A stretch of DNA of 64,000 nt from Alphaproteobacteria bacterium. GTDB taxonomy: Bacteria; Pseudomonadota; Alphaproteobacteria; RF32; CAG-239. Positions 47,730 through 56,669 of this stretch are shown in pieces; position 1 is the first letter of the stretch, and each line of letters begins with the position of its first letter. The notes under the pieces are model-generated. The model made no database searches, was not told the origin of the DNA, and saw only the letters and a list, made by a program, of their open reading frames with translations. The DNA is taken from the NCBI GenBank assembly GCA_045537965.1, contig JAZSQL010000003.1:3056-67055 (forward strand). Direction: 5' to 3'. The translations under genes and the position numbers were made by a program.

Positions 47730-47806
47730 GGGCCCTTAGCTCAGTTGGTTAGAGCAGGCCGCTCATAACGGTCTGGTCGTTGGTTCGAGTCCATCAGGGC
47801 CCACCA
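47730..47806 (+). tRNA. tRNA with CAU anticodon, either elongator Met or lysidine-dependent Ile2 (ileX-like acceptor and anticodon arms), CCA encoded
   Basis: Hand fold: acceptor GGGCCCT/AGGGCCC, D-arm GCTC-AGTTGGTTA-GAGC, anticodon loop CTCATAA, T-loop TTCGAGT. The T-stem GTTGG/CCATC has one T-T mismatch. Confidence 0.9.
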
Positions 47807-50347: not shown

Positions 50348-50378
50348 AAACCCGTCATTTTTTATGACGGGTTATTTT
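50348..50378. terminator. Hairpin terminator between convergent recombinase and lipoprotein operons
   Basis: AACCCGTCAT (50349-50358) pairs with ATGACGGGTT (50364-50373), 10 bp. T-rich tails are modest on both strands. Confidence 0.6.
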
Positions 50379-50789
50379 CTATTCAACTTCATGTGCTTCG
50401 AGAAATAGAGATTGTCCTAAAGCATTAAAAAAGTTTTGATATGCCATAGGATCTTCAATTGCTTCTAAACCTGATTGTGCATTAATTCTAACAACAATTT
50501 GTTTTGAATTAATTGCTCGGACTGAAGCTGTAAGTTTAGATGAATGAGTAAAAGAAGTACCACTAATAGTACCTAATTTTTCATCCGCTTTATCAATGAT
50601 AAAACCTAAATCTTGCATTGTTGAAATTACAGCCCTTAAAACCATAGCTTTATTATTGGTATCAAAATAACGAGATTGATAATTTCTCATTTGAACTTGG
50701 GTTTGCGACATTCCTAAAACGTCTTGATGAGTTGAAGCACAGGCAGTAAGACCTAATATCATAGTGATAGTTAATAAAATTTTCTTCAT
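50379..50789 (-). CDS. Lipoprotein, paralog of the upstream gene (136 aa)
   Basis: Lipobox GLTAC. Shares the blocks ..MQDLGFIIDKADEKLGTISGT.. and ..IEDPMAYQNFFNALGQSLFLEA.. with the 173-aa neighbour. Confidence 0.7.
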   Translation of the reverse strand: MKKILLTITMILGLTACASTHQDVLGMSQTQVQMRNYQSRYFDTNNKAMVLRAVISTMQDLGFIIDKADEKLGTISGTSFTHSSKLTASVRAINSKQIVVRINAQSGLEAIEDPMAYQNFFNALGQSLFLEAHEVE

Positions 50790-50798
50790 CCTAGTCTC

Positions 50799-51320
50799 CT
50801 ATATATTGTTCGCTGTTAAGAATACAGATTGACTTAACTTATCAAAAAAGTCTTTGTAGATAACTTCGTCTTCTATTTTTTCAATTCGAGCTTCATTCAT
50901 GTTATTCCAAATTACACGAGCAAACTCTACTCTTACATTATAACCATAATTGTTGTGGCTTTTTGTAGAAACTAAAGTTACATAAATTTTTTGATTTGTA
51001 TCGTAAACTGGTTGGGTTCCTGCAAATGCAGCTAATAAAATTAATCCGACTTTACCAGCGGTAGAACCAGCCTCTCTATCTTTACTTGCAGTAATAAGAC
51101 CTAGCTTTGTTTCACTTTCATTTAAAGTAAAACCAAGATCTTGCAAAACCTGTGCAGAAGCAATTAATAAAGCTTCTTCATTTTGTGTTTCGTATCTTCT
51201 TGTTTCTAATTGTCTTCTTGCTAAATATTGTTCATCTAGCATGTAGTAGTCACCATAATATCTAGCACATCCTGAAAGGAATAGTGATATTACAAAGACA
51301 AAACTTATTATCTTTTTCAT
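50799..51320 (-). CDS. Lipoprotein, paralog (173 aa)
   Basis: Lipobox FLSGC, and the blocks LQDLGFTLNESETKLGLITAS and IEDEVIYKDFFDKLSQSVFLTA. Confidence 0.7.
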   Translation of the reverse strand: MKKIISFVFVISLFLSGCARYYGDYYMLDEQYLARRQLETRRYETQNEEALLIASAQVLQDLGFTLNESETKLGLITASKDREAGSTAGKVGLILLAAFAGTQPVYDTNQKIYVTLVSTKSHNNYGYNVRVEFARVIWNNMNEARIEKIEDEVIYKDFFDKLSQSVFLTANNI

Positions 51321-51330
51321 ATCTTATTCC

Positions 51331-51729
51331 TTAGAAAGTAGATGTTCTATATGCAAAATCTCTAACTAGACCATTTTTATCAAATTTAACAATGATAGTT
51401 AAAGTTCTTTGATTAGAGCTAGCTTGTTTTTCTCTTCCTTCTCCATAAAATAGAAGTAACCATATACCTTTTGTTGATGAAGAAGATTGAATATTGGTAG
51501 AAACCTTGTCATAAACCCAAGTTTCTCTACGCTCTGTATCTGTTGTAACCATATTTGGTGAACCAAGAGCTTCAATGACAGCTGAAGATGTCATACCAAT
51601 TTTAATTTCTCTTTGAGCTTTAGCAACAGTCATTCTTTCTTCGTTTAAACTATAGTTAGTTGTAGAACATGCAGAAAGAAATGGTATTGTTGCAATAGCT
51701 GCGGCTAATAAAATATTTTTATATTTCAT
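51331..51729 (-). CDS. Lipoprotein with SmpA/OmlA (BamE)-like domain
   Basis: Start at MKYKNILL after GAGGGG. Lipobox FLSAC. IKIGMTSSAVIEALGSPN...ETWVYD...IIVKFDKNGLV resembles BamE-fold lipoproteins. Confidence 0.6.
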   Translation of the reverse strand: MKYKNILLAAAIATIPFLSACSTTNYSLNEERMTVAKAQREIKIGMTSSAVIEALGSPNMVTTDTERRETWVYDKVSTNIQSSSSTKGIWLLLFYGEGREKQASSNQRTLTIIVKFDKNGLVRDFAYRTSTF

Positions 51730-51750
51730 AATATACCCCTCAATAACTAA

Positions 51751-51937
51751 CAAGTCGCCCTGATGAGAGGCGACTGGAAGTTGAGAACAATACCACTAGT
51801 TATTGTGCGATATATTGACTTTAAAAGCGTATTTTATCGCCTTCCAGTCAAAAACTGGTAGGCGAAAATATCGTCTTTCGCGACGCTAGTGGATATTAGG
51901 TTCTCACACCCAAGTCAGACCATCAACTCTGACTTGC
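51751..51937. ncRNA. Candidate structured RNA or cis-regulatory leader (unclassified); strand undetermined
   Basis: ORF-free, GC-enriched stretch with eight perfect 4-10 bp complementary pairs, some mutually exclusive. Coordinates are in the findings. Confidence 0.35.
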
Positions 51938-52029
51938 TCATTATAGAATTAAGAGATTAAAAAATGCAAGGAATTTTTATTATTGATGTGATATTTTATA
52001 TTGATATTCAAAACAGTAGATAAAAAATT

Positions 52030-52052
52030 GTTTTTACACAGGTTTTTACACA
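52030..52052 (+). repeat. Tandem direct repeat GTTTTTACACA x2 (12-nt period), possible operator
   Basis: 52030-52040 and 52042-52052 are identical. Located in the divergent intergenic region upstream of the sigma-like gene. Confidence 0.4.
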
Positions 52053-52151
52053 AGATACATTTCTCTACAACTATGTAAAATGCTAATATATCAAGCTCTT
52101 TAGCTCGGATGTAATTTGGAGTTTTCTTGTAATTTTATAGGTAATTCAAGA

Positions 52152-52191
52152 CAATAAACCTCTCATTAACATTAAAAAAAGAGGTTTATTG
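52152..52191 (+). promoter_or_regulatory. Perfect 12-bp hairpin sequestering the SD of the sigma-like gene
   Basis: CAATAAACCTCT (52152-52163) pairs with AGAGGTTTATTG (52180-52191). The 3' arm contains the AGAGG SD and ends at the ATG (52192). Confidence 0.5.
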
Positions 52192-52680
52192 ATGAAACTC
52201 AATATTTTTAGCGGACTACCTGAGTATGTCCGAATGACAATTTTATCGCAAATTAGGCGCTTATTGTCGACACCATTATTTTCATATGAAGATAAAGAAG
52301 ATTTAACCCAAGAACTATTACTGTTTTATCTCAAGCGATTTTATGATGTCCCCGATGTCGATGAGGCATTGGTGGTACATGCATTAAAACAGTATGCCAC
52401 TAATTTATTAGTTATGAGATATCGCCGGCGCGACTTTTTATATTCCTCATTAGCTGACTTCGAAGCAAATGAGGATTTTTCTTATTTAAATATATATACG
52501 CCAAATCATGATACCAAACTACTTTTTATGAAAATTTGGGAATTGGCCGAAGGTAGAGAGAAAATTGTCGTAGAGCGATTATTACAAGGCGATAGTTTAG
52601 ATAAAATATCAAGGGAGATGCATATACATAAAAAGACGATTTATAAATTTTTTGAAAAAATACGCAAAAAATTAAAATAA
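52192..52680 (+). CDS. ECF-like sigma factor / sigma-70 region-4 HTH protein (divergent)
   Basis: EDLTQELLLFYLKRF resembles region 2.1-2.2. The C-terminus EKIVVERLLQGDSLDKISREMHIHKKTIYKFFEKIRKKLK resembles a region-4 HTH. Confidence 0.5.
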   Translation: MKLNIFSGLPEYVRMTILSQIRRLLSTPLFSYEDKEDLTQELLLFYLKRFYDVPDVDEALVVHALKQYATNLLVMRYRRRDFLYSSLADFEANEDFSYLNIYTPNHDTKLLFMKIWELAEGREKIVVERLLQGDSLDKISREMHIHKKTIYKFFEKIRKKLK

Positions 52681-54173: not shown

Positions 54174-55208
54174 ATGCAAAAAACTGCAGAAGCGGTGTCT
54201 CTTGGACATCCTGATAAAATTTCCGATTACATTTCAAGTTACATTTTAGACCGTATGATTGAGCAAGATAGCTCAGTTAAATATGCTGTTGAGGTTATGA
54301 TTAAGGATAATAACGTTATTCTTGGTGGTGAAATCAAGGGAGATGTTTCTCTTGAAAATGTTAATGAGTATGTTATTTCAGCCCTGGCCGATATAGGTTA
54401 TACCAAAGATTATGCTAAAATCTGGGGTGAATATGCTATAGAACCTGATAAAATAAAGGTTACAAACTTAATTGGTCAACAGTCTGCTGATATTAACCAA
54501 GGTGTTGAGCAAGATGGTTGGGGAGACCAAGGAGTATTTGTGGGCTATGCTTGTAAAGGTGATGGGCTAATTAATTGTGAATTGTTTTTAGCGCGTAAGC
54601 TCAACAATGTGTTGTATGAGAAAGCTAAAACATCTACCAATCTTGGTTTGGATATTAAAACGCAAATTACTTTAAATGATGGTCAAATTGAAACTGCTAT
54701 TGTTGCAATACCAATGTTAAATGATGAAGATTTAACTGATTTAATAGTTGAAACATTAGGTGAAACACCTAAAAACATTATCGTTAATGGAACAGGTCGT
54801 TATACTTACCATTCATCTGTCGCAGACTGCGGCATTACAGGTCGCAAGCTCGCTTGTGATTTTTACTCTACCGCTTGTCCAATTGGCGGTGGTAGTCCAT
54901 GGACTAAAGATGGTTCAAAGGCAGACCTAACCTTAAACTTGTATGCTAGACAGTTAGCTGTAGAGAACTTAAAAGATAATGATGAGTGCTTTATTTATTT
55001 ATCTTCTTGCATTGGTAAAGCAGAACTTCCAAGTGGTTTGATTAAAACAATCAAAGATGGTAAGGAAGAAAACAGAAGTCTGTGGTGTAATCAAAAACCA
55101 AAGACTCTCATTAAATATTTAGGACTTGATAAGCCTGTGTATGCAAAATTGTGTAAGAAAGGATTACAAGCTTTGACTATAAAAGCAACGGGTCCTTCCT
55201 CCGATTAG
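54174..55208 (+). CDS. metK: S-adenosylmethionine synthetase-like protein (compact, phage-borne MetK homolog)
   Basis: MetK motifs in order: GHPDKISD, QQSADINQGV, GWGDQG, DIKTQ, ADCGITGRK, GGGSPWTKDGSKAD. 344 aa, and AAGGAG SD. Confidence 0.8.
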   Translation: MQKTAEAVSLGHPDKISDYISSYILDRMIEQDSSVKYAVEVMIKDNNVILGGEIKGDVSLENVNEYVISALADIGYTKDYAKIWGEYAIEPDKIKVTNLIGQQSADINQGVEQDGWGDQGVFVGYACKGDGLINCELFLARKLNNVLYEKAKTSTNLGLDIKTQITLNDGQIETAIVAIPMLNDEDLTDLIVETLGETPKNIIVNGTGRYTYHSSVADCGITGRKLACDFYSTACPIGGGSPWTKDGSKADLTLNLYARQLAVENLKDNDECFIYLSSCIGKAELPSGLIKTIKDGKEENRSLWCNQKPKTLIKYLGLDKPVYAKLCKKGLQALTIKATGPSSD

Positions 55209-55412: not shown

Positions 55413-56669
55413 ATGGAGTTTCAAGAGAACTATCCAGTGGATAAACTTATACCTTATGCTCGTAATTCTCGCACACATAATGATGAGCAAGTTGCTCAAA
55501 TTGTAGCTAGTATTAAAGAGTTTGGTTTTACCAATCCTATTTTGATTGGTGGTGATGATGTCATTATAGCCGGACATGGCAGACTTTTAGCTGCCCAACG
55601 TATGGGATTAAAGGAAGTTCCGGTCATCAGATTACCTCATCTGTCCGAAACTCAGCGCCGAGCATTAGTTATTGCAGATAATAAAATAGCTCTAAATGCC
55701 GGATGGGATGAAGAAATGCTAGCTCTTGAGATGAAAGAGCTTGAGGATATGGACTTTAATCTTGATATTTTAGGCTTTTCAGATGAAGAGTTAAAAGAGC
55801 TTGAAACCTTTGGTGAGCCTGAAACAGAAGGTCAATGTGAAGAAGATGCTGTTCCTGAACCTCCTGAAGAGGCTATTACAAAACGTGGTGATATTTGGAT
55901 TTTAGGTAATCATCGTCTGATCTGTGGTGACACGACAATGTATGATGATGTAAAAAAAGTAATGCAAGATGATATCGCTACTATGATTTTTACAGATCCA
56001 CCATACAATGTAAACTATGGTTCCACGATGAAAGACAGCATTAGATATCATGCCGGTTCGCTTGGTGGTCGTAAAATTATGAATGATAACTTAGGCGATG
56101 GTTTTGCTCAGTTTTTAACTGACAGCTTGTCTAATCTCATGATGTTTTGCCAAGGTTCAGCTTATGTTTGCATGAGCTCATCCGAACTCCACACATTATA
56201 TAATGCATTTATTACAGCCGGAGGTAAATGGTCAACCTTTATTATATGGGCAAAAAACACCTTTACATTAGGCCGAGCTGATTATCAGCGCCAATATGAG
56301 CCAATTTTATATGGTTGGAATGCTGAACATAAGCATTATTGGTGTGGAGATAGAGACCAAGCTGATGTGTGGGAATATAATAAACCTATTAAAAATGACC
56401 TGCATCCGACTATGAAACCAGTTGAACTGGTTGAAAGAGCTATTACTAACAGCTCTCGATCCGGAGATGTCGTGCTAGATGGTTTTGGTGGTTCGGGTTC
56501 TACTCTTATTGCTGCTGAAAAAACTGGCAGAAAAGCTCGTCTTGTGGAGTTAGATCCTAAGTTTTGTGATGTAATTGTAAGGCGTTGGGAGGAATTTACC
56601 GGTAAGAAAGCAGAACTATTGGAAGATAATGCAGAAAGTTCGGAAAATGATGTCGAATTAACTGGATAA
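55413..56669 (+). CDS. ParB-like N-terminal domain fused to N6-adenine/N4-cytosine DNA methyltransferase
   Basis: ParB/Srx block FGFTNPILIGGDDVIIAGHGRLLAA, methylase motif IV IFTDPPYNV, and SAM motif VLDGFGGSGST. Confidence 0.9.
   Translation: MEFQENYPVDKLIPYARNSRTHNDEQVAQIVASIKEFGFTNPILIGGDDVIIAGHGRLLAAQRMGLKEVPVIRLPHLSETQRRALVIADNKIALNAGWDEEMLALEMKELEDMDFNLDILGFSDEELKELETFGEPETEGQCEEDAVPEPPEEAITKRGDIWILGNHRLICGDTTMYDDVKKVMQDDIATMIFTDPPYNVNYGSTMKDSIRYHAGSLGGRKIMNDNLGDGFAQFLTDSLSNLMMFCQGSAYVCMSSSELHTLYNAFITAGGKWSTFIIWAKNTFTLGRADYQRQYEPILYGWNAEHKHYWCGDRDQADVWEYNKPIKNDLHPTMKPVELVERAITNSSRSGDVVLDGFGGSGSTLIAAEKTGRKARLVELDPKFCDVIVRRWEEFTGKKAELLEDNAESSENDVELTG

Follow-up and report, generated by a model that had tools for sequence, protein, structure and literature searches.

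A minus-strand leader RNA in the window, the 64,000-nt stretch of DNA analyzed here, probably acts as a bistable, riboswitch-like regulator of the three-lipoprotein operon that follows it and is carried in a prophage moron; no effector or transcript data are available. Comparative analysis established the strand of this RNA, its conservation, the two sets of helices that it can form and the mutual exclusion of these sets. Its output was inferred, and would be exerted on translation initiation in the window leader and on termination in relatives. The element belongs to a conserved family of leaders not in Rfam 15, which we infer, without transcript or biochemical data, to control outer-membrane genes in uncultured gut Alphaproteobacteria. 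The apparent regulon, a porin and BAM-accessory-like lipoproteins, points to outer-membrane biogenesis.

Helices and folding energy of the element

A sequence-only reading of the window had described the element as a GC-rich stretch packed with complementary segments, some of them competing. Each of its eight helices was read against the window sequence and found at the following positions (plus-strand letters):

51753-59/51769-75: agtcgcc/ggcgact, loop ctgatgaga
51772-80/51841-49: gactggaag/cttccagtc, 9 bp, perfect
51782-88/51900-06: tgagaac/gttctca
51793-99/51886-92: ccactag/ctagtgg
51830-41/51861-70: 10 bp with a 2-nt bulge
51844-48/51854-58: ccagt/actgg
51872-75/51882-85: cgtc/gacg
51911-19/51928-36: caagtcaga/tctgacttg

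GC content is 0.37-0.42 over 51700-51949 vs 0.20-0.30 in the spacer to the right, which bears out the enrichment. Folding, which the same reading had proposed as a check, placed both strands below all dinucleotide shuffles (0/200 as good on either). The plus strand has a minimum free energy (MFE) of -73.4 kcal/mol vs -41.8 +/- 3.8 for 200 dinucleotide shuffles (z -8.4), and the minus strand one of -71.9 kcal/mol vs -46.9 +/- 4.5 for 200 dinucleotide shuffles (z -5.6). The 9-bp helix has bases in common with the first hairpin and is incompatible with the nested fold, as had been noted.

Strand, promoter and extent of the leader

The consensus fold of the family contains many G-U pairs together with one-sided changes from G-C to G-U or from A-U to G-U. 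Read on the plus strand, these pairs would become A-C mismatches, so the minus strand is the RNA strand. The compensatory changes are also compatible only with the minus strand, and a covariance model built from the leaders scored the minus strand of the window at 243 bits and its plus strand at 27 bits. These results bear on the possibility that the element functions as DNA, its inverted repeats forming a recombination site, an origin or protein sites, or that it is a plus-strand leader of the nearby sigma gene. The better z-score of the plus strand and the location of the element in a prophage near a serine recombinase would fit such a role, but neither a sigma gene nor a recombinase lies near the chromosomal copies, and the sigma gene is present in related phages that lack the element. 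Given these observations and the strand-specific pairs and scores, an explanation at the level of DNA or of the plus strand is already largely refuted and in our judgment scarcely credible. An attP or other recombination site for the serine recombinase was likewise rejected as a candidate, since chromosomal copies lie away from any recombinase and related phages lack the element.

The signals flanking the leader are as follows:

51964-51969, minus strand: putative -35 box TTGCAT; CTTGC invariant in all copies, spacer variable
51940-51945, minus strand: putative -10 box TATAAT; 18-nt spacer; TATAAT or TATTAT conserved in 21 sequences
51736-51741, minus strand: Shine-Dalgarno sequence (SD) GAGGGG of the first lipoprotein gene; start codon at 51727-51729

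The -35 box was not flagged by a simple consensus scan because only 3/6 positions of TTGACA are matched; its assignment rests on the conservation pattern, an invariant CTTG against a varying spacer. The bases between the -10 box and GUCAG vary, and conservation starts at GUCAG, ~7 nt past the -10 box. From there to the SD, ~200 nt are almost invariant in the alignment of 21 sequences. We infer from this pattern, and not from measurement, a putative promoter at 51969-51940 on the minus strand and an RNA start near 51933. The leader RNA (~200 nt), with its start so inferred, would begin just past the promoter and end at the SD of the first lipoprotein gene.

A ribosome-mediated leader-peptide attenuator was rejected because the leader has no conserved short ORF. 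No ORF of at least 20 aa was found on the leader strand, and the window leader contains only AUG-stop pairs of 1-2 codons, none of which is kept across subtypes.

Conservation and distribution of the leader family

Databases contain more than 900 relatives of the first lipoprotein, and the three-gene operon occurs in many different chromosomal neighborhoods, in contigs and MAGs whose labels are mostly those of uncultured gut Alphaproteobacteria (neighbors include nusG/secE, parB/htpG, psd and a tRNA synthetase gene). The gap upstream of the operon is always 270-450 nt, and the element was found in it in 21 distinct sequences, always directly upstream of a gene, in the same orientation and 25-40 nt from the SD. 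Upstream of more distant homologues of the operon, the sequence is plain and AT-rich. The leaders are 89-97.5% identical to that of the window, the adjacent coding sequences 72-90% and their third codon positions 51-74%. The leader is thus far more conserved than the adjacent coding sequence, which places it under much stronger constraint than the protein. The proposal that the element is an unclassified structured RNA forming the minus-strand leader of the operon is supported by the promoter, the strand-specific pairs and this conservation above that of the coding sequence. Homologue collection and a covariation check had also been suggested, and the paired segments are conserved across the 21 distinct copies and covary across the wider family, as judged by pair counts on the alignments.

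In L029 a second, divergent leader (L029:133-337) lies ~1.1 kb upstream of the lipoprotein leader (L029:1294-1500), before an Omp25/31-type beta-barrel porin gene (PF13505). Homologous porin genes in other MAGs also carry the leader, at other genomic sites; these porin-gene leaders have other helix sequences and an identical architecture. A covariance model built from lipoprotein leaders only detected the OMPa porin leaders at 55-65 bits (E 1e-12 to 1e-14) and the leader of L118 at 28.5 bits, and a model of lipoprotein and OMPa leaders together detected L118 at 35 bits (E about 1e-6). No second copy was found in the rest of the window with either model, and the lipoprotein-leader model had no further match in 244 kb of other, unrelated loci. 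BLASTN of the element against phage and plasmid collections returned nothing relevant, scans of IMG/VR with three exact element patterns gave no match, and the first lipoprotein had only one distant viral match in a viral search. The leader-porin cassettes are sited differently in each MAG, which suggests that they are mobile. In L111 (1276-2232), a cassette of leader and porin gene lies between rpoA and rplQ, within the normally contiguous ribosomal protein/rpoA operon.

Two mutually exclusive folds

A multi-branch consensus fold, state A, was obtained with RNAalifold and mapped to window coordinates (all on the minus strand):

51911-51936: P1 hairpin, core GUCAGA/UCUGAC, invariant loop UGAUGG (51920-51925)
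51900-51906: P2 outer helix, 5' strand UGAGAAC, partner 51782-51788
51782-51788: P2 outer helix, 3' strand GUUCUCA
51886-51892: P2' helix, 5' strand CCACUAG, partner 51793-51799
51793-51799: P2' helix, 3' strand CUAGUGG
51872-51885: P2a hairpin CGUC-GCGAAA-GACG (predicted fold)
51830-51870: P2b hairpin, 3' arm carrying SD-like GACUGGAAG (51841-51849)
51800-51829: junction strand CGCUUUUAAAGUCAAUAUAUCGCACAAUAA, unpaired in state A
51772-51781: anti-SD/switch strand ACUUCCAGUC, pairing with the SD region (state A) or with 51841-51849 (state B)
51753-51775: P3 hairpin GUCGCC-UCUCAUCAG-GGCGAC, then UUGUUAGUUAUU; loop UCAUCA (51761-51766)

In the 24-sequence family alignment, 98.4% of state A cells are standard pairs and 25 pairs change on both sides, and slid controls, in which the 3' partner was shifted by 1-3 columns, gave 29-53% paired cells and 2-5 two-sided pairs. 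The alignment was fitted to state A, so these counts lean towards that structure. Most helices are invariant within the lipoprotein type, and much of the covariation comes from just three OMPa sequences and L118.

P1 is paired in 100% of cells, with both sides changing in 5/6 pairs across the family, and its G-C to G-U changes suit the minus strand only. P2 occurs in the subtype versions UGAGAAC/GUUCUCA, UUGAUACC/GGUAUCAA, UUGAAAGC/GCUUUCAA, UUAGAACC/GGUUCUAA and UAAGAAC/GUUCUUA. Within the lipoprotein type, P2' changes from C-G to G-C in six sequences and from U-A to A-U in three, and in other subtypes its strands have different sequences that are still complementary. All pairs of P2a (4/4) change on both sides across the family; P2b is 98% paired and includes several G-U pairs that suit the minus strand only. 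P3 shows C-G to U-A in three sequences as well as U-A to U-G changes. Within the junction strand, AGUCAAUAUAUCGCACAAUAAC is invariant in 21/21 lipoprotein-type copies. RNAalifold also paired ACUUCCA, just 5' of P3, with UG.GAGGU, which is the SD. An extra pairing of 8-9 bp before the SD in the lipoprotein type, CAAUAACUA/UAGUUAUUG, was not adopted, as it has uncompensated breaks in L018, L030, L096 and L100.

The 9-bp helix, from which either a pseudoknot or two exclusive folds had been proposed, is the alternative pairing and covaries across subtypes. In this second fold, state B, GACUGGAAG, the SD mimic in the 3' arm of P2b, pairs with CUUCCAGUC, which consists of the anti-SD and the first three bases of P3. 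This switch helix encloses two hairpins, B1 and B2, whose strands are unpaired or otherwise paired in state A; the junction strand gives the 3' arm of B1 and the 5' arm of B2. The state B elements and the versions of the switch helix are:

51835-51840 with 51807-51812, minus strand: B1 hairpin, GCGAUA with UAUCGC
51801-51805 with 51788-51792, minus strand: B2 hairpin, CAAUA with UAUUG
switch helix GACUGGAAG/CUUCCAGUC: lipoprotein type and two porin leaders
switch helix GACCGGAAG/CUUCCGGUC: L115
switch helix GGUCAGAGG/CCUCUGACC: L118
switch helix GGUCGGGGAG/CUCUCCGACC: L017 and L024

The state B helices, taken with P1 and the loop contact described below, are 98.2% paired in the family alignment with 11 pairs changing on both sides, against 32-44% paired in slid controls; the alignment was fitted to state A and not to state B. 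The switch helix itself is 99.5% paired and has a U-A to C-G double change in L115, and its four versions are all collinear, at a constant position relative to the other helices. B1 occurs in coherent versions across subtypes (GCGAUA/UAUCGC, GUAGU/ACUAC and GCAGU/ACUGC), as does B2 (CAAUA/UAUUG vs CUAUU/AAUAG). Because the switch helix, B1 and B2 change coherently across subtypes, both folds are kept by selection. The comparative evidence thus demonstrates, at the level of predicted pairing, two mutually exclusive, covarying folds, as a switch requires.

The loops of P1 (UGAUGG) and P3 (UCAUCA) are invariant and complementary to each other. Porin leaders have wholly different P1 stems, yet UGAU and AUCA are retained in their loops, and in L111 a pair flanking the contact changes from U-A to C-G, a compensatory change. 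A kissing contact that ties both ends of the leader together in state A is likely, although only one compensatory event supports it, and neither L118 nor the type-2 leaders show the P1-P3 loop complementarity.

These type-2 leaders, of ~300 nt, precede the lipoprotein operon in L010 (2700-3000), L017 (1200-1500) and L024 (1200-1500). Aligned by hand, they display the P2/P2'/switch/terminator logic without detectable sequence similarity, and their homology to the other leaders is unproven. They were not significant to either covariance model (10-13 bits). L017 and L024 differ from each other by compensatory changes, and no Rfam family was matched.

In 5/5 subtypes, the best fold that includes the switch helix lies ~10-11 kcal/mol above state A by nearest-neighbor energies (ViennaRNA), and the elements of state A are the MFE structure at every transcript length examined. 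With state A so much lower in energy, state B would need an effector or co-transcriptional kinetic trapping, neither of which has been demonstrated.

Proposed coupling to the Shine-Dalgarno sequence and to terminators

The 5' strand of the switch helix carries an SD-like GGAAG, GAGG or GGGGAG, and its 3' strand the anti-SD complementary to it. The true SD, GAGG(U) or GGAAGU (6 perfect pairs), is the partner of this anti-SD in lipoprotein and OMPa leaders, and the complementarity follows the SD of whichever gene lies downstream. For the window's own sequence the SD-paired fold has an energy of -71.8 vs an MFE of -71.9, and is thus only iso-energetic. In L118 and the type-2 sequences L010, L017 and L024, the position of P3 is taken by a true intrinsic terminator just upstream of the SD. 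The clear terminators of these relatives (L118, L017 and L024) have the form GACCACC..GGUGGUU followed by a U-run. P3 of the window was flagged as terminator-like on the minus strand, and its tail, TGTTAGTTAT, is a weak U-tract. Riboswitch classes are usually marked by just such a combination of one conserved core with different expression platforms.

These observations can be combined into a provisional mechanism. In state A, P1, the multi-branch domain (P2, P2', P2a and P2b) and P3 would form and GGAAG would be locked inside P2b, so that the anti-SD CUUCC is free to pair with the real SD. Expression would then be off, through the paired SD or, in other family members, through the terminator. 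The contact between the P1 and P3 loops would probably clamp this state. In state B, GACUGGAAG would leave P2b and capture CUUCCAGUC, B1 and B2 would replace P2 and P2', P3 would lose its base and the SD would be freed, turning expression on. An effector, inferred only and most likely a cytoplasmic small molecule or ion, would stabilize the state A junction, making the leader an OFF switch; none has been identified.

The terminator-like P3 also allows for a different product, a stand-alone sRNA acting mainly in trans and ending at P3, with the operon expressed by read-through only. One relative has a sub-threshold match to a known sRNA family (sRNA-Xcc1, below), which would agree with this. 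We nevertheless regard such an sRNA as very unlikely, because the element is invariably found directly upstream of a gene in the same orientation, 25-40 nt from the SD, because the anti-SD tracks the downstream SD, and because the U-tract of the window is poor.

It could also be argued that there is no true two-state switch, the leader serving as an RNA thermometer whose SD pairing melts with temperature, or as a constitutive stabilizing or processing element that only sets mRNA half-life. The helix between SD and CUUCC is short and imperfect, and state A is thermodynamically dominant, as this would predict. However, a near-invariant stretch of ~200 nt, together with a multi-branch domain and an alternative helix that covaries, goes far beyond the requirements of a thermometer. 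As inhabitants of the gut, the host bacteria experience little change in temperature, and none of the Rfam thermometer families matched the element. A thermometer or constitutive element is, on this evidence, highly improbable, and the bistable leader remains the preferred reading.

Comparison with known RNA families

Searches of Rfam 15 used 4227 covariance models at their gathering thresholds. Only tRNAs scored above threshold in the window, a search of 51600-52250 with permissive filters returned only noise (E > 2) over the element, and the type-2 and OMP leaders had nothing above threshold. The failure of the sequence-only reading to assign the element to a known class is therefore borne out by Rfam 15, and that reading was essentially right. 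A text search of the literature found no description of the motif, although such a search cannot prove absence.

Two candidate families were examined and set aside. A hammerhead ribozyme had been suggested by CTGATGAG in the plus-strand loop at 51760-51767; this ribozyme requires a three-helix junction with CUGAUGA and GAAA cores and a cleavage site, no match to its covariance model was found at E <= 10, and CUGAUGAG lies in a hairpin loop on the plus strand, which is rejected by the pattern of G-U pairs and compensatory changes and by the model scores. The second was sRNA-Xcc1 (RF02221), which matched L115:1378-1453 at 35.6 bits (E 0.004), below the gathering threshold of 53, in an alignment with the state B fold. 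One of four leaders (L115) matched it at E <= 1, and nothing in the window did. Both RNAs have a 9-bp outer helix enclosing two hairpins, in L115 as state B. sRNA-Xcc1 resides in integron cassettes upstream of symE-like genes (bioRxiv 10.1101/2025.06.18.660453). Membership in this family was rejected on the sub-threshold score, the restriction to L115 and the different genomic context.

Two of the criteria for a riboswitch, which also include direct, protein-free binding of a small-molecule or ion ligand, were applied, a conserved, structured 5' UTR domain with covariation and an exclusive alternative pairing that links this domain to an SD or terminator; the leader meets both, the second in five subtypes. 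Its organization resembles that of SAM-I and TPP OFF riboswitches in several respects: a conserved multi-helix domain lies upstream of genes and control extends to more than one gene family; a strand of the domain, here the 3' arm of P2b, is shared with an anti-terminator or anti-anti-SD helix; and one core is combined with SD-sequestering platforms or intrinsic terminators. Unlike these riboswitches, the element has no known ligand and no Rfam 15 match, exceeds most aptamers in length, carries an additional 5' hairpin with a loop that matches that of the platform hairpin, and is predicted to favor state A strongly without ligand. The three-way competition among the GGAAG mimic, CUUCC and the SD (GAGG or GGAAG) is that of SD/anti-SD/anti-anti-SD switches, but here the mimic sits inside a large conserved domain, where such switches use a leader peptide or a simple hairpin to control it, and there is no leader ORF. 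Guanidine-II riboswitches are kissing-loop regulatory RNAs, and the element similarly has two conserved, complementary loops able to dock and stabilize one state; its loop sequences differ, and its hairpins are 150 nt apart and flank a large domain.

We tentatively propose, as a possibility that remains short of being probable and for which there are no ligand data, that the leader represents an undescribed riboswitch class, in which the P2/P2'/P2a/P2b junction would be the aptamer for a cytoplasmic metabolite or ion and would co-ordinate outer-membrane biogenesis in uncultured gut Alphaproteobacteria through control of BamE/BamC-like lipoproteins and an Omp25/31-type porin. If so, a temperate phage would have captured the switch together with its cargo, and the moron would be wired into a host envelope-homeostasis signal. 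As the effector, which is unidentified, we favor a small molecule; its main rival is an RNA or protein that acts in trans. In Gammaproteobacteria, porin and BAM-type genes such as those regulated here are classic sRNA targets, and enterobacterial OMP mRNAs are under trans control. The minus-strand leader might accordingly be set by a trans-acting sRNA or by an Hfq-, ProQ- or CsrA-type protein in place of a ligand. The identity of the regulated genes, a porin and BAM-like lipoproteins, would fit this, as would the presence of GGA-containing motifs and the conservation of the UGAU/AUCA loops and the junction strand despite differing stems, since these could be recognition sites. However, the conserved loops match each other in cis, a complementarity that one compensatory change preserves, and riboswitches typically combine one core with varied expression platforms. 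The analysis identified no sRNA or protein as a candidate, and the exported products cannot autoregulate. Control by such a trans-acting factor is thus unlikely, though it cannot be dismissed.

The conservation of the leader family, its two covarying folds and its two kinds of platform make it a concrete candidate for ligand hunting. We know of no earlier description of cis-acting RNA switches before genes for porins and BAM-accessory-like proteins; the well-studied Gammaproteobacteria rely on trans-acting sRNAs for such control. The leader family would give access to envelope regulation in an uncultured gut lineage of which little is known.

The operon and its prophage cassette

The prophage in the window adjoins tRNA-Met (47730-47806). 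Its gene order is a DUF2924 protein, a large serine recombinase, a terminator, the three minus-strand lipoprotein genes and the element, followed by further phage genes:

48713-50338: large serine recombinase
50349-50373: bidirectional intrinsic terminator closing the cassette
50379-50789, minus strand: lipoprotein 3; lipobox; central segment resembling that of lipoprotein 2, by eye
50799-51320, minus strand: lipoprotein 2, predicted BamC-N-domain-like fold; AF2 model pLDDT 80
51331-51729, minus strand: lipoprotein 1, BamE/OsmE-like; Pfam BamE 7e-07, weak NCBIfam BamE and OsmE matches
52192-52680: sigma/GerE-like gene, then DUF6291, DUF6362, MetK-like and ParB-methylase genes

Lipoprotein 2 belongs to no Pfam or NCBIfam family. 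Its AlphaFold model had its best PDB matches in the BamC N-terminal domain (E 1.4e-4, TM 0.56-0.61 on target), and the model resembles the helix-grip domain of the BamC N terminus. Lipoprotein 3 had no family match. The three lipoproteins look like a small BAM-accessory-like set.

In the related phage contigs L001 and L002, whose sigma proteins are 94% and 66% identical to that of the window, the recombinase gene runs straight into the region upstream of the sigma gene, with neither the lipoprotein genes nor the element. Because the cassette is missing from these phages and has its own terminator, the segment from 50339 to ~52030 is taken to be an inserted moron. It meets the criteria of a moron: its own promoter (inferred) and terminator, a position between conserved phage genes, and absence from related phages. 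Like other morons, it is a promoter-to-terminator cassette on the opposite strand between integrase and regulatory genes, and it carries cargo, here envelope lipoproteins; unlike the usual moron, it brings a complex cis-regulatory RNA of host type. The cassette of promoter, leader and operon occurs in chromosomal contexts too, the element accompanying the operon and not the phage. We infer that the prophage acquired the whole self-regulated cassette as a moron. A phage moron can thus carry a sophisticated host-type regulatory RNA, beyond a promoter and a gene, and a leader so carried bears on how lysogens silence or induce prophage cargo.

Three further features were observed in the plus-strand genes beyond the element. 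From its SD (AGAGG) to its start codon, the sigma/GerE-like gene lies in the 3' arm of a 12-bp hairpin (52153-52191, plus strand; CAAUAAACCUCU..AGAGGUUUAUUG; MFE -18.6, z -2.9), which is kept in the cassette-less L001 and L002 and may control translation of this phage regulator. Upstream of the same gene, at 52030-52055 (plus strand), is a tandem direct repeat, GTTTTTACACA(G)GTTTTTACACA, which is present in one copy in L001 and may be an operator. Farther downstream, a divergent S-adenosylmethionine synthetase-like protein is encoded at 54174-55208 (plus strand), followed at 55413-56669 (plus strand) by a fusion of a ParB N domain and a DNA methyltransferase.
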